In this document: positions 226 through 15,932 of the stretch, one piece after another
How the letters are laid out: every line of letters starts with the position of its first letter
How positions within the stretch are numbered: the first letter of the stretch is position 1
Source of the DNA: Candidatus Heimdallarchaeota archaeon
Lineage (GTDB): Archaea > Asgardarchaeota > Heimdallarchaeia > Heimdallarchaeales > Kariarchaeaceae
NCBI GenBank assembly: GCA_015523565.1
Contig: WAKA01000134.1
Location: 1 to 22,544 of the forward strand
Direction: 5' to 3'
Length of the DNA: 22,544 nucleotides
Made by a program: the position numbers and the translations under genes
The notes under the pieces: generated by a model
The model's input: the letters and a program-made list of their open reading frames with translations, nothing else
What the model was told of the DNA's origin: nothing
Database searches by the model: none

Positions 226-2727
226 ATGAAGGATAGTGTAACACTTTTCGTCATTATATTATTTCTCCCATATGCCTCCTTTTCCTACACCCCTCTTATC
301 ATGGGAAAAGGAGTGGGGGTCTCCTTAACCATGACAAACTCTTTGATAATTCATGGTGATGGTGATCTCCTAAATAAAACCGCTCAATTCGGGTGGTCAG
401 GAACAGGATCTGTCTTGGATCCCATAATCATTTCCAATCTTGAGATTGTGTTTGACAATTGGAGTCTCAATGCAATAGAAATTTCAAATGTATCATTGAG
501 TATAGTGATAAAGGATTCATTTCTAAATGGTTCTTTTCTTAATGGAATTTCTCTTTCCAATGTCTCAAGTGTGTCTGTCATGAGTTTGAATGTCACAAAC
601 TTTTCAGGAACTGGTATTTCTGTAAAGGGCTTTGGCAATGAAACTTTTACATTGGAACATTCATTTATCTCTGCAAATGGCAATGCAATAGATGCGTACA
701 ATTATTCTGCAATTTCCATCTCAGATTCACAGTTGAATGGTCAAAGAGGGATACGTTGCCAATTTTCAGGATGCGGGATCTTTAGAAATACAATAAGTGC
801 TAAGACTGGCTATGGCATTTACATTAACTATCCTTTTAATTTTGAAATAGCAAATAATTCCATTAGTTCTGAAACGAATGGCATTGATATTTACTCTTAC
901 TCACAACCATTGCAAGTAAATCCCGTTTTTGTTGTATCACAAAACTTGATTGTGACCAATTACTATGGCATAACGGCATATTTTACTCCTTTTTTGAATA
1001 TTACTGGAAATACCGTTTCAGGTGCCTTCTATGAATCAATTTACACATATTATACCTCAAATATGACCATTGATGACAATCATCTTGAATTTGGTGGAAT
1101 ATTTGTCAATCCCATAGAAACTGCAATATTTTCCATGAAAGGAAATACATTGGCTGGCATACCGATTTTCTATGGCAATGGCATTAATGACATGACCTTG
1201 ACTGATGTAAGCCAAGTATTTCTAATCAACTCATCAAATATTGATATTGACTCAAATATTCTGCAAATAAATACCGATGCTATTACCCTCATTAATTCAA
1301 CATCCATCTCAATAACTGGTTCTGTTTTAAACACTAAAAAAACAGGAATAACTGCTGAACACGTCAATGGTCTGACTGTTGAAGATCTTGTTTTTTCTGG
1401 AAATCAGGCATTTGACATTACTGATTCTGCAAATCTCATTCTTGCTTCAAATTTGATCAATGAAGAGTCTCAATCAAGGTATTATTCTGTCTCAAACATG
1501 CTCATACAAAATAACATGATCAATGGATATTTTGGATATTTGTATAATGCATCCCATGTCACAATTGAATCAAACCGTGTTTCAAACAATGATTTTGATG
1601 ACTATCCTATCCTTGATGGTGTTTTAATGGATATGCTTAACATTCGCGACAATTACCTGAGTGGTGGTGAAGACGGATTTGTCTTGGATTCTATTTTCAA
1701 TTCTACAATTTCATCAAATGTGATCTTGGAATCTGGCGGCACTGCCCTTCAATTTTCTTCATCATCAAATGTGTCCATTGTGAATAACATCATTGTTAAC
1801 CATCAAACAGGAATTTTAGGATCATTCTCCTCTCATGTTGTAATTTCTGATAATTGGGCATTTAATACATTGACAGGGGTCGAATTATCTGTGGCAGACA
1901 CTGCCCTGATATTCGGAAATGACCTTGATGGTTTTGATTTTGGAATATCTTTGCAAGATATCAGTAATTCGTCCCTATTCTCAAATATTTTTGTATCACC
2001 CAACAAAATCTCACGAATAAAGAACCTCTCAAATGTATCATTCACTTTCAATGATTTTGTCCAATCGGTTCCATTTTCTGTGATGATGGATAGTAGTTCT
2101 GGAAATTTCGCGAATGTAACTTTTGACCAAAATTACTGGTCTGGATATGAGGCAAATGACACCAATTCAGATGGCTTGGCAGATGATCCATATGAGGTTT
2201 ATCAAGGTGTTTTTGACAACAATAGCCACATTGATGCAAACAACGACCCAAGAAACGATATTCTTGTCATTCCAGACAATCTTGTTTTAATTGCAGAGGG
2301 CTCTCCCCAAGAGATATGTTGGACGATCAGCAATCTTCTGATTGCACCATATTCCCTTTTTGCCGATGGTGTCTTAATTGACGAAGGGTATCTCAATTCT
2401 TCCCAGTTCTGCTATTCGTTCACCCCTGCTGCAAATAAAAGCTCAACTGTGAATCTTTTGGTTCATGGGTACCTTGATCTAATCCAATCAAGTGTTGTCA
2501 TTATTCCTGCACCTTCAACCTCAACCCTGACGTCTATTTCGGAAACAACAAATCTAGAGACTATTACTGTTACAAAAACAGCTGAAGGACTTCCGTCTTT
2601 CTCTTCTTCTAGCTCTGTTGAATCATCCACATCTGAAACATCACCTTATCCATTGTTCTTTTTCTTGCTTACATTGTTTCTTGTCCCATATTACAAAAAA
2701 AGGAGGAACAAACTAAATGAAAATTAA
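226..2727 (+). CDS. Cell-surface right-handed beta-helix (NosD/PbH1-repeat) glycoprotein with C-terminal membrane anchor
   Basis: N-terminal signal peptide; motif GWSGTGSVLDPIIISN; Asn/Ile/Ser-rich parallel beta-helix repeats; NosD-type C-terminal motif NYWSGYEANDTNSDGLADDPY; Ig-like segment; Ser/Thr linker; TM helix and KKRR tail; more than 20 N-x-S/T sequons. Confidence 0.85.
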   Translation: MKDSVTLFVIILFLPYASFSYTPLIMGKGVGVSLTMTNSLIIHGDGDLLNKTAQFGWSGTGSVLDPIIISNLEIVFDNWSLNAIEISNVSLSIVIKDSFLNGSFLNGISLSNVSSVSVMSLNVTNFSGTGISVKGFGNETFTLEHSFISANGNAIDAYNYSAISISDSQLNGQRGIRCQFSGCGIFRNTISAKTGYGIYINYPFNFEIANNSISSETNGIDIYSYSQPLQVNPVFVVSQNLIVTNYYGITAYFTPFLNITGNTVSGAFYESIYTYYTSNMTIDDNHLEFGGIFVNPIETAIFSMKGNTLAGIPIFYGNGINDMTLTDVSQVFLINSSNIDIDSNILQINTDAITLINSTSISITGSVLNTKKTGITAEHVNGLTVEDLVFSGNQAFDITDSANLILASNLINEESQSRYYSVSNMLIQNNMINGYFGYLYNASHVTIESNRVSNNDFDDYPILDGVLMDMLNIRDNYLSGGEDGFVLDSIFNSTISSNVILESGGTALQFSSSSNVSIVNNIIVNHQTGILGSFSSHVVISDNWAFNTLTGVELSVADTALIFGNDLDGFDFGISLQDISNSSLFSNIFVSPNKISRIKNLSNVSFTFNDFVQSVPFSVMMDSSSGNFANVTFDQNYWSGYEANDTNSDGLADDPYEVYQGVFDNNSHIDANNDPRNDILVIPDNLVLIAEGSPQEICWTISNLLIAPYSLFADGVLIDEGYLNSSQFCYSFTPAANKSSTVNLLVHGYLDLIQSSVVIIPAPSTSTLTSISETTNLETITVTKTAEGLPSFSSSSSVESSTSETSPYPLFFFLLTLFLVPYYKKRRNKLNEN

Positions 2728-5251
2728 ATCTATTTCAATCTTCTTCTTAATACTTGTCTCTGTTGCACCGTCCCCATCATGGATGATGAACATGGCTCCC
2801 ACTTCTCCAATTCAAATCAAAAGGATTACAAACCAATTATTCATTATTTCTGGCAATCAGCAACTTTTGGATATGGCTCAAAACATGAGCTGGCCTGGAG
2901 CAGGAACATTTGACGATCCCATTATCATTTCAAATTCCGAATTTTTCTATGATAACTATGGTGGCACAACTGCATGGTCATTTTTCAAAACTACACTCTA
3001 CGTGCGCTTTGAAAATGTTGTCTTCAGAACCACTGAAACCACCAATTTCGAAGCTATGTTCTGGGCAATCGCATCAAAACATATTGAATTCAATAATACA
3101 AAGTTTATAGGTCCTGTAAATGGTGCTGCCTTACGAATAAATGCTGATGGTTTTGCAGATCAATCTACCCCAATATCTATTCATGATAGCTACTTTGACA
3201 CTTCTCCTTGGGCAATTGATGTCTTTGAGGCACATGATGTCAGTATTATAAAAAACACAATTGGTGCGACTAGTGGTGTCTTTATTCTTCGGACAGAAAA
3301 TGTTACTGTTGAAAAAAATTGGATAGTTTCTAATCAATATGGGATATATGCAAGTGAAAGTTTTGGCACAAATATTGTGGGAAATTCTATATCCTCAACC
3401 AATAAAGGTATTTGGGGAAATCTCTTGGAACTTCCAACTGTCAATGAAAATTCCATCAGAACAAAAATTGGCAGGGGAATTTCACTAAGTTCAACAGATT
3501 ATGCAGAAATTGATTCAAACATTGTTCATTCCCCTACAATTTCCATATCTGCCTATTCTTCATCAAATTATACTCTCACAAATAATGACTTGCATGGTGG
3601 TGGTATCGGAATAAACTTTGACAATAAAATCTATTGGCCGCTCAACGTGTCTGGCAATACTCTCAATGGGCTCAATGTCCTTTATGACATAGGGGGTCGA
3701 ACTTCCGATAAAGGAGGCGTCTATTCCCAAGCTTTTCTTATTGAAACCAAGAATGTGGCTTTTAAAATCGATGGACGAGGCATCGAAGACACTGCTGTCA
3801 CTATTATGCATTCCGATAACATTCAAATCACTGGTGGAAACATCTCAAAGGCTTTTACTGGTATTGAAATATTTAATTCTTCGCGAATTTCCATCTCAGA
3901 CCTCGACATTAGACATGTCTATGAAGGAATTGCTGTTTCGCAATCCACTTATATCTCTATCCAAAATGTATTTTTTGAAAACATTCAGGACTCCGCAATT
4001 TCTTTCTACAATGTTAACTATTCTGAAATATTTCAAAATATTCTTTATGATGGCTCATTTTACTATGCATATAAAGGTAACAATGTGTTAATTAGACATA
4101 ATGTGTTGATAGGCAACAATTTAGACGATTTGATCTCTTCTTCCTATTCAAAATCAGTAAAAATTTTGGGAAACTATTTTGATAACGGTGAAACTGCAAT
4201 CTCCAGCAATGAGGTAGATGCCCTTTCCATATATGGAAATACAATCTTAGACATGAGTACTTTTGCATTAACTCTTTATAACACCTACAATGTTTCTATC
4301 TCCAAAAATTACCTTTCCACCTTTGGGTTTGGAATCCTCCTTTATTCCATTGTGAACCTTACCTTTTTTGATAATCTCCTCGATGCATATCTCGGAAATG
4401 GATTGTATGGATCTTATATTGACATGGCACTCGTGAGTAGAAACATCTTTCGTGGAGATGGCGGAATGGATTTCTATTCCGTTACTAACTCGTCTATATA
4501 TAGGAACATTTTTGATACGAATGGACTACAACCTATAATCGACCTAATGGATGTGGACATTGAAATCGCAGAAAATGATTTTTATGGAAATTCAACTAAT
4601 TTTATTAAGCAAGATCAATCAGATGTGATTGTCCATAACAACTTTTGGGAACCATGGAGAAGTCCCGATGTCGATGCAAACGGTATTGTCGACTTGCCAT
4701 TCGATGCAGGCTCTAATATCACCGACCCAAAACCTATGGTCAACCCTAACTTGGATATAATTTTCACAACCATTGTAACTCCTGTAAGCAATGAGATAAA
4801 ACTGAAAGAAAACAATGGATCTGTAACTGTCTGGCACCTACAAACTTCCTTCCCGTCGTTATATGAGATCTATTTGAATGGGAGCATTTTTAGTTCTGGT
4901 CTGTTAAATTCGTCCATTTCATCAATTAGTTTAAACATAACCGATCTTAATCCAGGGATTTATGTATTTTCGCTTTGGATGTTTCTAGGCTCACAAGTAT
5001 TTGTTTCTACTATTGTTCTTTATCTTAATGCTTCACTTAGCACTCCTTTAACGACTACGGTCATCATATCAACAGTCATATCAAAAACTACGATTACAAC
5101 AACCATATCGACTGAAATGGGAACAATGAACAAATCATCAATTGTGACTACCAGCACGTCCTCATCCCCCCTCCCTCTTATAGCTGTTTTCATACTTCTT
5201 CCCACGGTGATTTTCTTCAGAAGAAAGAAGTCCCTCAATAAGAAACCTTGA
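2717..5251 (+). CDS. Paralogous cell-surface beta-helix (NosD/PbH1-repeat) glycoprotein with C-terminal membrane anchor
   Basis: Same architecture as 226..2727: SWPGAGTFDDPIIISN, beta-helix repeats, NFWEPWRSPDVDANGIVDLPF, Thr-rich linker, TM and RRKK. Overlaps the upstream gene by 11 nt. Confidence 0.85.
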   Translation: MKIKSISIFFLILVSVAPSPSWMMNMAPTSPIQIKRITNQLFIISGNQQLLDMAQNMSWPGAGTFDDPIIISNSEFFYDNYGGTTAWSFFKTTLYVRFENVVFRTTETTNFEAMFWAIASKHIEFNNTKFIGPVNGAALRINADGFADQSTPISIHDSYFDTSPWAIDVFEAHDVSIIKNTIGATSGVFILRTENVTVEKNWIVSNQYGIYASESFGTNIVGNSISSTNKGIWGNLLELPTVNENSIRTKIGRGISLSSTDYAEIDSNIVHSPTISISAYSSSNYTLTNNDLHGGGIGINFDNKIYWPLNVSGNTLNGLNVLYDIGGRTSDKGGVYSQAFLIETKNVAFKIDGRGIEDTAVTIMHSDNIQITGGNISKAFTGIEIFNSSRISISDLDIRHVYEGIAVSQSTYISIQNVFFENIQDSAISFYNVNYSEIFQNILYDGSFYYAYKGNNVLIRHNVLIGNNLDDLISSSYSKSVKILGNYFDNGETAISSNEVDALSIYGNTILDMSTFALTLYNTYNVSISKNYLSTFGFGILLYSIVNLTFFDNLLDAYLGNGLYGSYIDMALVSRNIFRGDGGMDFYSVTNSSIYRNIFDTNGLQPIIDLMDVDIEIAENDFYGNSTNFIKQDQSDVIVHNNFWEPWRSPDVDANGIVDLPFDAGSNITDPKPMVNPNLDIIFTTIVTPVSNEIKLKENNGSVTVWHLQTSFPSLYEIYLNGSIFSSGLLNSSISSISLNITDLNPGIYVFSLWMFLGSQVFVSTIVLYLNASLSTPLTTTVIISTVISKTTITTTISTEMGTMNKSSIVTTSTSSSPLPLIAVFILLPTVIFFRRKKSLNKKP

Positions 5252-5310
5252 GCGCACCTTATCGCATTCCTTTTTAAGATTGATGTGAATTGTCAATTGT
5301 CTTCAGTAGG

Positions 5311-5426
5311 TTTCACTAGTTTGGAACCACTTTAATCGATCGTTTCCTTTGCCCCTGTGGCAATCAACGACGATGCATAAATGCTTTGCTGCACTCTTTT
5401 TGTGAACGGTCGATTAAAGGTTGAAA
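5311..5426 (+). ncRNA. Putative structured cis-regulatory leader RNA upstream of the rpl32e operon
   Basis: 5330-5345 (CTTTAATCGATCGTTT) pairs with 5404-5419 (GAACGGTCGATTAAAG): 16 contiguous pairs, the only non-Watson-Crick ones being two U-G wobbles on the + strand. Encloses hairpin TTGCC-cctgt-GGCAA (5349-5363). Confidence 0.45.
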
Positions 5427-5447
5427 TGACGGTAGGATGTAATAAAC

Positions 5448-5960
5448 ATGAGTGACAGGAAAGAACGGTTGCTTAGGATCAAGGCCGAAAAAAACAGAAG
5501 AAGACCAAAGTTCCTGAGGTCTGAATGGCATCGGCTCAAAAGACTAAGAACCTCTTGGAGAAAGCCAAAGGGTATCGACAACAAGATGCGCCACAAACTT
5601 AAGGGAAAAAGGAAAATGCCCACCACAGGCTACAAGAATCCCAAGGAAGTTCGTGGTCTCCATCCCTCTGGTTTTGAAGTGGTTCGAGTCTTCAATCCCG
5701 ATGATCTTGAAAATGTAGATCCGGAAACGCAAATCGCACAGATTGCAAGGACAGTTGGAACCAAAAAAAGGATCGAAATCATCGAATTGGCTGAGGAATT
5801 GGACATTCACATCATCAATCCGCAAATTAGACGCCGTGAACAGGTTTTGGAGGAAGAAGAGGAGGTGCCTTACACAGAAGAGGACTTTGCCCTTGCTGAA
5901 GAGGAAGATGAAGATGTTGACCTTTCCGAAGCCATAGACGAGGAGGAAAGTGAAGAATGA
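5448..5960 (+). CDS. rpl32e: 50S ribosomal protein L32e (eL32) with acidic C-terminal extension
   Basis: RRPKFLRSEWHR...WRKPKGIDNKMR...GYKNPKEVRGLHPSG...IARTVG; position at the head of the L32e-L19e-L18-S5-L30-L15 order. Confidence 0.97.
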   Translation: MSDRKERLLRIKAEKNRRRPKFLRSEWHRLKRLRTSWRKPKGIDNKMRHKLKGKRKMPTTGYKNPKEVRGLHPSGFEVVRVFNPDDLENVDPETQIAQIARTVGTKKRIEIIELAEELDIHIINPQIRRREQVLEEEEEVPYTEEDFALAEEEDEDVDLSEAIDEEESEE

Positions 5961-6430
5961 CGGACGTACGTGCACAGAGACGAATCGCCGCAGAACTTAT
6001 GGGCGTCGGCATCAACAGAGTCTTGATCAAGGAAGAGTTCCTTGGAAGAGTGGCGTTGGCCTTAACTAGGAGTGATGTAGGTAAACTTATAACCAGTGGT
6101 GCCATTACAAAACGACGTGTTGTTGGTACCAGCCGAAGAAGAGCAAGAGAAAGACATCACAAACATAAAAGAGGTCAAAGAAAGGGACCTGGATCCAGAA
6201 AAGGTTCCAAAAATGCCCGTGAAAATCAAAAAAGGGTATGGATCAATAAGATCAGGGCTCAGAGAAAATACTTGAGAAAACTTAGGGATGAAGGCTACTT
6301 GACTCCCCATACCTATCGAAAATTGTACTTGCAAGCAAAAGGCAATCTCTTCAGAAGCGTCCGCTATCTGCACAACTACATTGCAGAAAGAGACCTTGCA
6401 AGTAAGAAACTGCCACCATTCCAGAGGTGA
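5957..6430 (+). CDS. rpl19e: 50S ribosomal protein L19e (eL19)
   Basis: QRRIAAELMGVGINRV, RKGPGSRKG, WINKIRAQRKYLRKLRD, YRKLYLQAKG; ATGA overlap with rpl32e. Confidence 0.97.
   Translation: MTDVRAQRRIAAELMGVGINRVLIKEEFLGRVALALTRSDVGKLITSGAITKRRVVGTSRRRARERHHKHKRGQRKGPGSRKGSKNARENQKRVWINKIRAQRKYLRKLRDEGYLTPHTYRKLYLQAKGNLFRSVRYLHNYIAERDLASKKLPPFQR
6425..6430 (+). promoter_or_regulatory. Shine-Dalgarno motif AGGTGA (also at 7025-7030 and 7657-7662 on +, and 10455-10460 on -)
   Basis: The same hexamer lies 3-8 nt upstream of four start codons and is complementary to the archaeal 16S anti-SD. Confidence 0.8.
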
Positions 6431-6435
6431 ATTGA

Positions 6436-7026
6436 ATGGCTCATGGTCCAAGATATCGTGTTCCTCTCAGAAGAAGAAGAGAGGGGAAAACCAATTACTA
6501 TAAAAGACGAGAACTCCTGAAATCAGGAAGAAATAGGCTGGTCGTTCGAAAAACTGCCCGAAACATCATTGTACAGTTTATCGAATCCGTTGCAGAAGGC
6601 GATAAGGTCCTGCTTGCAGTCACCAGCATGAAACTTCCTGAATATGGATGGAAAATCACTGGTGGCAATATCCCTGGTGCATACCTAACTGGTTATCTTG
6701 CAGGAAAAATGGCATTGAAGGCAGGAATTGAAGATGCAATCCTTGACTTGGGAACACAAGTGCCCCAGCATGGCACCCGACTCTTTGCCGCCCTAAAAGG
6801 AGTCATTGACGCCGGTGTTGACATCCCCGCTGGCGAAGGCATTTTCCCTGAAGAAAACATCATCAGGGGAGAACATATCAAGAACTATAGTCAAAGACTC
6901 AAGGAAGAGGACAAGGATCTTTACAAGCAAAGATTTGCAGGATACTTGAAAGCCAAACAGAATCCTGAGAAGATTGAGTCCTTCTTTGACAAGACTGTCG
7001 AGACAATCGACAAGGCATTTGCTTAG
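6436..7026 (+). CDS. rpl18: 50S ribosomal protein L18 (uL18, archaeal type)
   Basis: MAHGPRYRVPLRRRREGKTNYYKR...RLVVRKT...AYLTG; AGGTGA at 6425-6430. Confidence 0.97.
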   Translation: MAHGPRYRVPLRRRREGKTNYYKRRELLKSGRNRLVVRKTARNIIVQFIESVAEGDKVLLAVTSMKLPEYGWKITGGNIPGAYLTGYLAGKMALKAGIEDAILDLGTQVPQHGTRLFAALKGVIDAGVDIPAGEGIFPEENIIRGEHIKNYSQRLKEEDKDLYKQRFAGYLKAKQNPEKIESFFDKTVETIDKAFA

Positions 7027-7036
7027 GTGAAAAATT

Positions 7037-7657
7037 ATGAGTAGACCAATACTGGACGAGTGGGAACCCAAAACCAAACTCGGAAAAGATGTCATCGAAG
7101 GAAAAGTGACCAGCATCGAAGAAATCTTCAAGCAAGGTCGCGTCATCCGTGAATGGCAAATTGTTGACTTCCTGCTACCAAATATCGATGACCATGTTTT
7201 ACAAATCAAACTTGTCCAAAAAATGAGTAGGGCAGGAAGAAAGAGGCAATTCAGGGCAACTGCCGTTGTCGGTAACAAGGCAGGCTATGTCGGAGTCGGA
7301 GAAGCAAAGCTTAAGGAAGCAGGACCTGCAATCCGAAAAGCAATCCTGAATGCAAAATTGAATATCGCTCCTGTCAGAAGGGGCTGCGGATCATGGGAAT
7401 GTAACTGCGGTGGGAATCACAGCATTCCATTCAAAACACGTGGAAGCTGTGGATCCGTTCGTGTCGAATTGATCCCCGCTCCCAGAGGACTTGGATTGGC
7501 CGCTGGTGAAGTCGCCAAAACCGTTCTCTCATTCGCAGGCATTCAAGACATCTGGAGCCGAACATCGGGACAGACCTCAACTACCAGCAATTATGCAATT
7601 GCAACCTTTGAGGCTCTGAAGAATACCTACAAGGTACTCCCCCCAACCGAATGGTAA
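7037..7657 (+). CDS. rps5: 30S ribosomal protein S5 (uS5)
   Basis: [49 protein letters not shown]; AGGTGA at 7025-7030. Confidence 0.97.
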
Positions 7658-7670
7658 GGTGATGATGATT

Positions 7671-8147
7671 ATGGCAGAACAAGAAATTTATGCAATCATA
7701 AGGCTCAGGGGTGAACCTGACACGCATCACTCCATCAGGAAAACTCTCTCCCTTCTCAGGCTCCATAAAGTCAATCATGCTGTTGTCTATCCCAAAACAT
7801 CAAGTCTTGAGGGAATGCTCTTCAAGGCAAAAGACAAAGTCACTTGGGGAACTGTTGACAAGCCAACGCTTGTGCACTTGCTGAGAAAACGAGGAGAACT
7901 TATCGGTCGAAAGAGACTGACTGATGAGTATATAAATGAGAACACCGAATATGGCTCAATCGAGGAATTCGTTGATGCAATCTTTGAAGGAAAGGCAAAA
8001 CTGACTGACATCCCCGGATTGAAGCCAGTATTCCGGCTTTCTCCTCCACGAAAAGGTTTCAAGTCACTCAAACATTCATACAATGACAAGGGTGATCTTG
8101 GCTATAGGGGAGAAAATATGAAAAACCTGATTATGAGGATGGCGTGA
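7671..8147 (+). CDS. rpl30: 50S ribosomal protein L30 (uL30, archaeal long form)
   Basis: AIIRLRG...TLSLLRLHKVNH...VTWG...KPVFRLSPPRKGF...GDLGYRG. Start moved from 7659 to ATG 7671 because AGGTGA lies at 7657-7662. Confidence 0.96.
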   Translation: MAEQEIYAIIRLRGEPDTHHSIRKTLSLLRLHKVNHAVVYPKTSSLEGMLFKAKDKVTWGTVDKPTLVHLLRKRGELIGRKRLTDEYINENTEYGSIEEFVDAIFEGKAKLTDIPGLKPVFRLSPPRKGFKSLKHSYNDKGDLGYRGENMKNLIMRMA

Positions 8148-8149
8148 AA

Positions 8150-8614
8150 ATGACAGTCAGAAGATCAAGAAAAGTACGAAAACAAAGAGGCAGCAGATCC
8201 CATGGATATGGTGTCGTCAAGGATCACAAAGGAAAGGGAATGTCTGGTGGTGCTGGAAAGGCGGGTCTCTTCAGCCATCGATGGCTTCAGGCAATCAAGG
8301 AAGCCAAAAAAGCCCGAAGAAAAAACATCACAGGGAAATACGGGTTCATCAGACCCCAACAATACCTCAAGAAATACCCTGTCATCAATGTGTCCCACCT
8401 TAATGCATCAATCGATACTCTCGTCAAAAAGGGAAAGGCAACAAAGGAAGGTGACAAGTATGTCATTGACCTTTCCAAGCTTGGCATCAAGAAACTCCTG
8501 TCTCAAGGAGATATAACCAAGGCCATGGACATCACTGTTGAAATGGCAACAGAACGTGCCATCGCAAAAGTCGAAGAGGCTGGTGGATCAGTCACCCTCC
8601 TTGAAGAAGAATAA
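8150..8614 (+). CDS. rpl15: 50S ribosomal protein L15 (uL15)
   Basis: RKQRGSRSHGYG, GGAGKAG, INVSHL, AIAKVEEAGG. ATG 8150 preferred over GTG 8144. Confidence 0.96.
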   Translation: MTVRRSRKVRKQRGSRSHGYGVVKDHKGKGMSGGAGKAGLFSHRWLQAIKEAKKARRKNITGKYGFIRPQQYLKKYPVINVSHLNASIDTLVKKGKATKEGDKYVIDLSKLGIKKLLSQGDITKAMDITVEMATERAIAKVEEAGGSVTLLEEE

Positions 8615-13323: not shown

Positions 13324-13545
13324 ATGATTAGGGCATACGTATTTATTACAACATCCGATGAAGACCAAACGATGGAAAAAGTCCGCCAAATGCCTGGCGT
13401 AAAGGAGGCGCATATTGTTTATGGGACATACAATATCCTGCTCATTGTAGAGGCTGAAAACTCTTCAGAATTAAAAAACCTGATTACCAAGGCCATTCGT
13501 CATATTGATGGAATTGTCAATACCATGACAACTATTGCCTTATAA
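13324..13545 (+). CDS. Stand-alone Lrp/AsnC ligand-binding (RAM) domain protein
   Basis: RAYVFI...PGVKEAHIVYGTYNILLIVEA...IRHIDGIVNTMT; no HTH. Confidence 0.9.
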   Translation: MIRAYVFITTSDEDQTMEKVRQMPGVKEAHIVYGTYNILLIVEAENSSELKNLITKAIRHIDGIVNTMTTIAL

Positions 13546-14248
13546 TTTCTGCTGTTTCATAGTCCACATAAAATTTGGTCTTTGTGTCAGGCATAAGCAT
13601 GATGGGATGTTTATATGGATCTATGACTCCATGTGCTTCTCTAAATGCCTTTGCCTTTTCCTTGCCTGTAAATATGACCAAATTTTCTTTTCCATTTTGT
13701 ATGGGGGTCGGTGTCATGCTTATTCTATAACTGGCTAGTTGCTCGACATAATATGCCTCAACCATTCGATTGCTGTTGAAATCAAAGCTGTTTGGGAAAA
13801 GGGATGCGGTATGGGTATCCTCGCCCATTCCAAAAATGCCTATATCAAAGCTTTGCCTGTTCAATCTATTCATCAGGTCTGTGGTGATATTGTTATATTG
13901 TGTTGCAGAAAGTTTTGCAGTTTTCTCATATGGGACATGGTTAAAATTTTTCAAGTTAGGAAGCTTTTCCATGATCATTCTGGCATTGGAATCTTCATGG
14001 TCCAGAGGAACCCACCGTTCATCGATTTGAATGGCATAAACCTTGTCCCAATCAATCCTTGTTTCAGAATTAAGCAATTCATAGAGCAATTGCGGTGTTT
14101 TTCCACCTGACAATGCCAAAAGGCAATTGGATCTTTCCTTGATTGTTTTGGTGATTTTATATGTAAGTATCTCTTTTAAAAAAAAGGAAATGGCTTCTAG
14201 GTCGTTAAGGGCAATAAACCTATAATTCCCGACCCTAAAGTTTTTCAT
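13532..14248 (-). CDS. pgl: 6-phosphogluconolactonase (DevB/Pgl type)
   Basis: LALSGGKTP, DERWVPLDHEDSN, GMGEDTHTASLFP, RISMT, G.EKA. AAGGAG SD before ATG 14248; adjacent to zwf. Confidence 0.93.
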   Translation of the reverse strand: MKNFRVGNYRFIALNDLEAISFFLKEILTYKITKTIKERSNCLLALSGGKTPQLLYELLNSETRIDWDKVYAIQIDERWVPLDHEDSNARMIMEKLPNLKNFNHVPYEKTAKLSATQYNNITTDLMNRLNRQSFDIGIFGMGEDTHTASLFPNSFDFNSNRMVEAYYVEQLASYRISMTPTPIQNGKENLVIFTGKEKAKAFREAHGVIDPYKHPIMLMPDTKTKFYVDYETAEIIRQ

Positions 14249-14399
14249 TAACTCCTTGCTACGGTTATATAATATCAAGCTTTTCCTTTTGCATTGCTTT
14301 AGTGTGTGTCGAATGGTATATTTGTCTTCATTTTGCTTTTTTTTTTGGCGAGGTAGAAAATTTTCAATATAGGTAAATTATTGGCGACTTGAAAACGTC

Positions 14400-15932
14400 T
14401 TGACAGAAGAAATTGATACTCCTGGTGTTCCCGACGGTACTGTCTTGGTCATATTCGGTGCCTCTGGTGATTTATCGCGTAGAAAATTGATGCCGGCACT
14501 ATATCATCTCTCCCGAGAGGGGCTCCTGCCACCCTGTTTGAAAATCATTGGACTTGGTCGGAGAATACAAGAAACAGAGGAATTTCGCCTCAAAATGAAA
14601 CATAGGGTGATTCAATATTGCTCACATAAAATGGAAGATCGCTTTTGGGGTCCAATTTCCAATTCCCTGTTTTCTATGAAAGCAGATTATTCTCAAGATT
14701 CAACCTTTGTTCTACTGAAACAAATAATTGAGGAAACTGAACGGCAATGGGGAAAGAAAGCAAACAAGTTGTTTTATTTTGCAACTTCCCCCAGCCATTT
14801 TGAGTTATTGGCGGAAAAGATTGCTGAATTTGGCATGAATGAGGAAACTAAAGAGACTTGGAGTCGGATTATTGTGGAAAAGCCTTTTGGACTCGACCTA
14901 AAAAGTGCAGATAGGCTCAATGCTTTGCTTAACAAGTATTATGATGAGGAACAGATCTTCAGGATTGATCACTTTTTGGGCAAGGAGGCGGTCCAAAATA
15001 TCTTGATCTTCCGAATGTCAAATATTCTTTTCCAGCCGTTATGGAACCGTGAATATATTGATCATATTCAAATCACCATTGCAGAGACCGTTGGGGTTGA
15101 GGGGCGAGTTGACTTTTTTGAACAGACTGGCGCTATAAGGGACATGATACAAAGTCATGCATTGCAGATACTTGCCTTTTTGACAATGGAACATCCCAGT
15201 TCTTTGGATCCTGAAGAGATACGCGATGAGAAAGTCAGGCTCTTTCGGGCAATAAGGCGTATCAAATCCGAGGATGTCCCCAAAATTTCCGTGCGTGGAC
15301 AGTATTCCGAGGGTGTTGTGAATTTTGAACTAGTTCCTGGTTATCTTGAGGAACCTGGTGTTTCAAAAGATTCAAAAGTTGAAACATATGCCGCGTTGAA
15401 ACTTTTCATTGACAATTTCCGATGGCGGGGTGTACCTATATATATTCGAACTGGTAAACGGATGGCGGCTAGGAAAACAGAGATATTCATTCAATTGAAA
15501 CAAGTTAAGGATGAAGCTATGCCCATGTTGCTTCAAAAGCAGAAGCCTATCCCGAACACAATCAGGATGGAGATCCAACCACGTGCTGGGATAGAAATAC
15601 AAATGGGCTGGAAACCACCTGGGCTTTTAACTGAAGTCGAACCCACTTCATTGACTATTGGCGGTAAAGCAATGCTGAAAGAACCAAAAGCATATGAGCG
15701 TTTATTGCTTGATGCAATGAGGGGTGATTCCACTCTTTTCATCAGGTATGATGAGATCAGGGAGATGTGGAAAATCGTTGATCCCATTATTAAGACATGG
15801 GAGAGGGAAAACAAAGAACTAAAGGAGAACAATATCCCCTTACCTAAATATCCTGCGGGTACTCAGGGTCCGAAAGTTGCAAAAGAGTTCATTCAAAAAG
15901 ACCATCGGAAATGGACAATCATTGAAAATTGA
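14400..15932 (+). CDS. zwf: Glucose-6-phosphate 1-dehydrogenase (canonical bacterial/eukaryotic type)
   Basis: IFGASGDL, GRR (NADP-type Arg), EKPFG, RIDHFLGKE, RDMIQSH, RGQY, RWRGVP..RTGK, AYERLL, YPAGTQGP. Confidence 0.97.
   Translation: MTEEIDTPGVPDGTVLVIFGASGDLSRRKLMPALYHLSREGLLPPCLKIIGLGRRIQETEEFRLKMKHRVIQYCSHKMEDRFWGPISNSLFSMKADYSQDSTFVLLKQIIEETERQWGKKANKLFYFATSPSHFELLAEKIAEFGMNEETKETWSRIIVEKPFGLDLKSADRLNALLNKYYDEEQIFRIDHFLGKEAVQNILIFRMSNILFQPLWNREYIDHIQITIAETVGVEGRVDFFEQTGAIRDMIQSHALQILAFLTMEHPSSLDPEEIRDEKVRLFRAIRRIKSEDVPKISVRGQYSEGVVNFELVPGYLEEPGVSKDSKVETYAALKLFIDNFRWRGVPIYIRTGKRMAARKTEIFIQLKQVKDEAMPMLLQKQKPIPNTIRMEIQPRAGIEIQMGWKPPGLLTEVEPTSLTIGGKAMLKEPKAYERLLLDAMRGDSTLFIRYDEIREMWKIVDPIIKTWERENKELKENNIPLPKYPAGTQGPKVAKEFIQKDHRKWTIIEN

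Follow-up and report, generated by a model that had tools for sequence, protein, structure and literature searches.

Feedback by ribosomal proteins on their own messenger RNAs (mRNAs) has been validated in archaea for the L1 leader of Methanococcus and for the kink-turn (K-turn) leader of L7Ae in Sulfolobus. Ribosomal-protein leaders (r-leaders) that switch are found in bacteria, one example being the L20 leader of Bacillus subtilis, where an alternative helix forms in competition with the core that the protein binds. For archaea the number of known or predicted cis-regulatory RNAs is small (PMC7247131), the r-leader candidates comprising S15-Halobacteria, S15-Methanomicrobia, eL15-Euryarchaeota and L4-Archaeoglobi (Eckert and Weinberg 2020, PMC7247131), and L32, L18 and eL19 are not mentioned in that work (PMC7247131). 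A literature search of incomplete coverage found no cis-regulatory RNA for Asgard ribosomal operons. In the present study we analysed a stretch of 22,544 nucleotides (nt) from Candidatus Heimdallarchaeota archaeon (GCA_015523565.1, contig WAKA01000134.1, positions 1 to 22,544), hereafter the window, and in particular the leader preceding rpl32e, the first of six ribosomal-protein genes. Comparison with related genomes suggests that this leader is an autoregulatory r-leader with two alternative folds, a reading to which we assign a probability of about 0.68. The leader is probably autoregulatory and, in this lineage, probably two-state.

On comparative grounds, the leader is a real, conserved and covarying RNA element that has not been described before. 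We gathered 22 distinct homologous rpl32e leaders from genomes, metagenomes and assemblies, all from one Kariarchaeaceae-like Heimdallarchaeia family, and the conservation and covariation upstream of rpl32e anticipated by an earlier sequence-only reading of the window were present in them. Common to all 22 is a core (5305-5374) in which a hairpin with a bulged purine (P1) is followed by two helices, P2 and P3, around a 3x1 loop (Table 1). Based on a sequence-only alignment, 95.8% of P1 cells are paired with two-sided changes in 9 of 10 pairs (slid controls 38-40%), and 94.4% of cells across the whole core are paired with two-sided changes in 16 of 23 pairs (slid controls 33-50%). Coincident 5' and 3' changes in the core number 37 on the eL32 tree, compared with 10.5 for a null of re-paired columns (maximum 18 in 2000 trials). 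Eleven held-out loci, fetched after the structure was fixed, retain 196 of 198 core pairs, with anchor placement aided by two P1 pairs and the degenerate leaders L116 and L120 excluded. The core segment (5300-5374) is stable (z -3.5), the whole region by itself being only moderately so (z -2.1; z -1.8).

The element is also specific to its locus. When this genus was left out of the covariance model, 5302-5374 was still its sole match in this genome (E 2e-5), and all 23 locus matches at E<1e-4 precede rpl32e, with one significant match per genome. Model scans of genomes returned no matches in other families, a weak negative because the genome-wide scans miss the known positives G001, G003 and G006. 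No Rfam family covers the element in the window (E<=1) or in eight homologous loci (E<=0.5), in agreement with the earlier view of it as undescribed.

The operon appears to have its own promoter. A TATA-like run lies 30-40 nt 5' of the first paired base of P1 in 22/22 leaders and the genes upstream of the leader vary among relatives, for which reasons the core is probably the first part of the RNA to be transcribed, with a predicted transcription start near 5299-5304. Invariant unpaired bases and fixed spacing within the core suggest recognition. At the base of P1, an invariant U-A pair (U5307-A5329 here) is combined with a bulged purine and a G-C pair. Every leader has the GUUU/MAAC end of the P2 helix, and the two conserved features, P1 with its bulged purine and P2/P3 with its loop, are 12-13 nt apart in 20/20 scored leaders. 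An element with a purely structural role at the 5' end (a signal governing stability or processing), or a small RNA to which the leader gives rise, in either case without feedback, would suit a stable core at the inferred 5' end, but would account poorly for such invariant bases and spacing, and in several relatives P2 reaches the Shine-Dalgarno stretch, leaving no space for a separate RNA. We regard this explanation as quite improbable.

The loop has the family consensus U-CUC-U opposite A-Y-A, with C first in the 3-base strand of all 22 leaders, CYY in 20 of them and an upper closing U-A pair in 19 of the 20 scored. This consensus fits the C-loop model UCACU/AAA, described at 2680-2684/2725-2727 of bacterial 23S ribosomal RNA (rRNA) (PMC8983868), and C-loops act as protein-binding motifs (PMC2952876). 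In three dimensions a C-loop has two crossing non-canonical pairs, of which the leaders give an indirect sign only: the third loop base and its cross-strand partner vary jointly, being C with A in most leaders and U with C in genus g1, as might be expected of bases in non-canonical contact, although C-loop geometry is inferred. Leader loop bases are identical to those of the helix 96 (H96) loop in six 23S genes of the family. C-loops of 23S H38, H50 and H96 and of the thrS mRNA (PMC8983868, PMC2952876) have in common with the leader a C-first 3-base strand, one base opposite and a closing U-A pair; the likeness here is one of sequence pattern, however, and the motif is generic and therefore does not name the ligand.

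In ten of the 22 leaders, belonging to five lineages, the 5' strand of P2 can instead pair with a distal strand that ends 23-33 nt 5' of the start codon. In the window this distal helix is the 16-bp helix reported by the sequence-only reading, whose coordinates (5330-5345/5404-5419), 14 Watson-Crick and two U-G pairs, 58-nt interior with an internal hairpin (now P3), upstream TATA-like run and downstream ATG were all correct. A multibranch fold closed by this helix had been put forward as the element itself, a proposal we do not retain since only ten leaders have the helix and it cannot coexist with the P1-P2-P3 core found family-wide. Its supposed outward extensions (5311-5315, 5325-5327) use bases that pair mutually in the conserved P1 hairpin, and a TGCA/TGCA pairing suggested for the interior is not conserved. 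The distal duplex has a folding energy of -21.0 kcal/mol compared with -6.8 ± 1.8 kcal/mol when the downstream segment is dinucleotide-shuffled 1000 times (p=0.001); the same comparison over the ten leaders gives p<=0.002 in nine and 0.051 in one, and two-sided changes are found in 8 of 16 pairs. The other 12 leaders comprise four that are long and lack the distal helix and eight that are short, with P2 ending 6-19 nt from the start codon, at or beside the Shine-Dalgarno stretch.

G-U cells outnumber A-C cells 21 to 2 in the core, which argues that constraint acts on the + strand RNA, and 19 to 4 in the distal helix, bearing out the earlier suggestion of strand-specific pairing at the RNA level. 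A DNA feature or an accident (a miniature inverted-repeat transposable element (MITE), a palindromic protein site, a terminator of the upstream gene or chance) might be entertained given that the 3.57-Mb genome holds 27 helices of this size, shuffled sequence having 1 and 4 per 1.2 Mb. The leader is, however, single-copy in the genome, which rules out a MITE, and occupies an orthologous position in relatives; the G-U bias on one strand, the covariation, the varying upstream genes and the lack of a terminator-like site make the remaining possibilities exceedingly improbable.

The ten leaders with a distal helix have two mutually exclusive conserved helices. Formation of the distal helix excludes P2. 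It occupies the 5' strand of P2 together with two pairs at the base of P1, so that neither conserved feature of the core survives intact. The distal helix is favoured in the computed free ensemble of 9/10 leaders (P 0.84-1.00), and locking the core costs 3.8-11.5 kcal/mol over the ten (3.8 in this genome). These results might alternatively reflect an r-leader in which a single fold is functional, the core being the protein site and the distal helix a lineage-specific addition that tunes stability or basal expression without a ligand-driven switch. The absence of the helix from 12 of 22 leaders, the mixed structures, part outer distal helix and part inner P2, that the models allow, and the lack of a conserved output element are all consistent with this alternative. 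Yet in five lineages it is precisely the conserved strand to which the distal strand stays complementary, at a constant spacing from the start codon, and the helix would destroy the protein site most of the time, so that a single working fold seems unlikely.

Under the favoured two-fold r-leader, the core would fold first during RNA synthesis and then bind free operon protein. Without protein, the distal strand would invade, and the more stable 16-bp helix would remove the site and enclose the pyrimidine linker (ON); with protein bound, the core would be locked, the linker free and expression lowered (OFF). In short-leader relatives, where P2 lies at or beside the Shine-Dalgarno stretch, binding could directly block the ribosome. 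The linker has 5-6 U per 10 nt in 10/10 distal-helix leaders with no conservation of its sequence, and its pyrimidine-rich composition would suit either a U-rich signal for termination in archaea or loose pairing with the purine-rich ribosome site. No intrinsic terminator was found at the leader. In the models, opening the ribosome site of this genome is dearer by 2.2-8.6 kcal/mol when the core is locked. A block of translation, favoured because short leaders put P2 at the ribosome site, is put at about even odds, with early termination and some other output each having perhaps half that standing. A conserved specific anti-Shine-Dalgarno sequence, seen by eye, was discarded since it held only in L112 under linker shuffling.

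Several observations weigh against an autoregulatory two-fold leader. The ribosome-site effect of a locked core is seen in only five of the ten leaders, the other five being unchanged, and exceeds that of shuffled linkers of the same composition in one (L112), with p=0.52 for this genome. The loop is degenerate in this genus (CCU opposite C) with a U-C closing mismatch, and the related family members L131 and L136 lack the leader motif. H96, which the loop resembles most closely, is a site of uL3, uL14 and eL24, none of which is encoded in the operon. The whole core motif has no model match in 23S, 16S or 5S rRNA, including the rRNA sites of the six operon proteins.

The identity of the ligand can be narrowed only tentatively. 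In r-leaders generally, the gene that comes first gives little indication of the ligand, which is usually a primary rRNA binder (PMC7247131). Of the encoded proteins, uL18 is a weak lead; it contacts helices II-III and loops B-C of 5S rRNA (PMC1976436), and its counterpart L5/uL18 reads P5SM, a plant regulatory mimic of 5S (PMC3378873). We consider eL19 a doubtful candidate, eL32 somewhat more doubtful, and uS5, uL30 and uL15 each improbable. A cis-regulatory RNA responding to something outside the operon (temperature, an ion or metabolite, or some other protein) would agree with the absence of clear rRNA mimicry in searches of 23S, 16S and 5S, and a sensor coupled to a competing helix is also the general layout of riboswitches. 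The element is nevertheless found solely before this ribosomal block, and every r-leader ligand known so far is a product of the unit under its control, several r-leaders being without rRNA mimicry (PMC7247131); a non-operon ligand therefore appears improbable.

The 5S rRNA itself was considered as both model and identity of the element. RF00001 gave a 5S match in 0/12 genomes of the family, and 5S genes could not be predicted in closed Heimdallarchaeum genomes (PMC8813620). The element is not the missing 5S rRNA, as the 5S gene lies elsewhere and is circularly permuted (contig C61:19086-19213; L165:1587-1714 in our locus set), with model positions 45-120 preceding 1-55, each half weak alone, helix I closed by a loop and the helices covarying. 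A permuted-5S model matches 44/47 genomes of the order and 85/151 of the phylum, these being model matches and not counts of permuted genes. Mimicry of the 5S helix II bulge was rejected because in the family the bulged base varies (A, C or U) and the flanking pairs are different, and a strand order shared with the permuted 5S gene was dropped as evidence for uL18. A second, tandem 5S copy split by ~100 nt was observed at G001:C18:33448-33702 (L172, L173), and tandem permuted 5S units in G065 (L162).

In a sister family (L017-L019, L022-L030), rpl32e is preceded at ~55 nt by a different, likewise short and conserved leader (UAGC ... GUAACAUU), which follows its own internal TATA-like run, often right behind rpl6, and has no Rfam match. 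The L017 row of alignment A8 was disregarded because its coordinates were wrong. By eye, this leader seems to contain the same U-A/bulged A/G-C step as P1 and a strand resembling 5S loop B; the 9/10 match to loop B was reached by 5-11 of 67 control rRNA windows and is not significant.

Table 1 Features of the leader and operon in the window
Feature	Position	Strand	Basis or remark
TATA-like T-run, operon's own promoter	5271..5278	+	equivalent run in all 22 homologous leaders
P1 hairpin	5305..5331	+	basal pairs 5305-5307/5329-5331; bulged A5308; stem 5309-5315/5322-5328
P2	5335..5374	+	5335-5344 with 5366-5374, A5339 bulged; proximal pairing, family-wide
Asymmetric C-loop-type loop and P3 hairpin	5345..5365	+	loop 5345-5349 with 5363-5365; P3 5349-5353/5359-5363
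Variable linker with pyrimidine tract (5394-5401)	5375..5403	+	inside multiloop if distal helix forms, free if core forms
Distal strand	5404..5419	+	pairs with 5330-5345; 10 leaders
Weak Shine-Dalgarno-like stretch	5431..5437	+	best hybrid with 3' end of the family's 16S, -5.7 kcal/mol
Operon of six ribosomal-protein genes	5448..8614	+	Pfam
rpl32e (eL32)	5448-5960	+	Pfam; ATG at 5448
rpl19e (eL19)	5957-6430	+	Pfam
rpl18 (uL18)	6436-7026	+	Pfam
rps5 (uS5)	7037-7657	+	Pfam
rpl30 (uL30)	7659-8147	+	Pfam
rpl15 (uL15)	8144-8614	+	Pfam

The six-gene block is detached from the spc cluster, as the sequence-only reading had supposed, since rpl6 (uL6) sits on a different contig both in this genome and in the 10-contig relative G003. 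At L123, L127, L129 and L131 the block adjoins the uL1-uL10-P1 protein genes in divergent or tandem arrangement. More than half of the 22 promoters have a CGCG or GCGC box (window 5252-5256) ~15-25 nt 5' of the TATA-like run, possibly a promoter element or factor site. The rpl32e genes at L115:451, L133:301 and L135:1507 lack an in-frame ATG and have AUU at the usual site, 5-9 nt past the Shine-Dalgarno stretch, a probable non-canonical start in this clade. The eL32 protein carries an acidic C-terminal tail of ~40 residues past the Pfam domain (window 5830-5960) and is similarly long in relatives, with longer proteins in L131 and L136 (252 and 198 amino acids). A small upstream open reading frame (ORF) with an ATG at 5373 was rejected because its start is not conserved.

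Elsewhere in the window, 226-2727 and 2717-5251 encode two large proteins in tandem, each with a Ser/Thr linker, a hydrophobic helix and a basic tail at its end; NosD/beta-helix Pfam matches are present in the second (2717-5251). Judged from translations only, divergent ORFs at 13532-15932 resemble 6-phosphogluconolactonase and glucose-6-phosphate dehydrogenase, which would together make up an oxidative pentose phosphate pair of bacterial type. Outside the window, the 23S gene (L138 ~3497-3557; L147) has a ~60-nt insertion after H96-H97, the site of described Asgard expansion segments, and the G009 16S gene one of ~160 nt. On the last contig of this genome with a transfer RNA (tRNA) call, which stands immediately ahead of C233, ARAGORN places a tRNA with a stop anticodon at 83934-84023 (- strand); the call may be spurious, or the tRNA may contain an intron.

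If the proposal is correct, the leader would represent a new RNA-protein feedback pair and would show how, in close relatives of eukaryotes, dosage control is restored after a ribosomal gene cluster has broken up. With a core of ~70 nt and six candidate ligands, it could be examined in vitro without culturing the organism, and the presence of short and long leaders in one family allows a simple blocking site and a switch to be compared on the same core. More speculatively, and with some reserve, the leader may be a riboswitch-like two-state Asgard r-leader read by a protein for which no prokaryotic r-leader is known, either uL18 as a sensor of 5S rRNA supply or one of the archaeal-eukaryotic proteins eL19 and eL32. 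On this view it would have arisen when the block separated from the spc cluster, and the different leader of the sister family would have its bulged-purine element in common with it.

Like the L1 and L7Ae leaders, the Heimdallarchaeia leader is proposed to mediate ribosomal-protein feedback on its own mRNA, but those leaders use a clear rRNA mimic or a K-turn, and the present block has neither an L1 nor an L7Ae gene. A K-turn was rejected here, the consensus being without tandem G-A pairs. The L20 leader of B. subtilis, with its competing helix, is unrelated in sequence and fold, and the Heimdallarchaeia leader has no intrinsic terminator. P5SM (PMC3378873) is an earlier case of a regulatory element in mRNA that uL18 reads, although it controls splicing and is openly 5S-like, whereas the 5S likeness of the Heimdallarchaeia leader is limited and not significant. 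Two features by which r-leaders are recognised comparatively, a position upstream of ribosomal-protein genes and a structure supported by covariation, are both present in our alignments. The closest parallels are the candidates of Eckert and Weinberg, which are likewise lineage-restricted, covarying and directly upstream of ribosomal-protein genes, and are predictions there too; they differ in genes, lineage and fold, and the Heimdallarchaeia leader is set apart by its competing-helix module.
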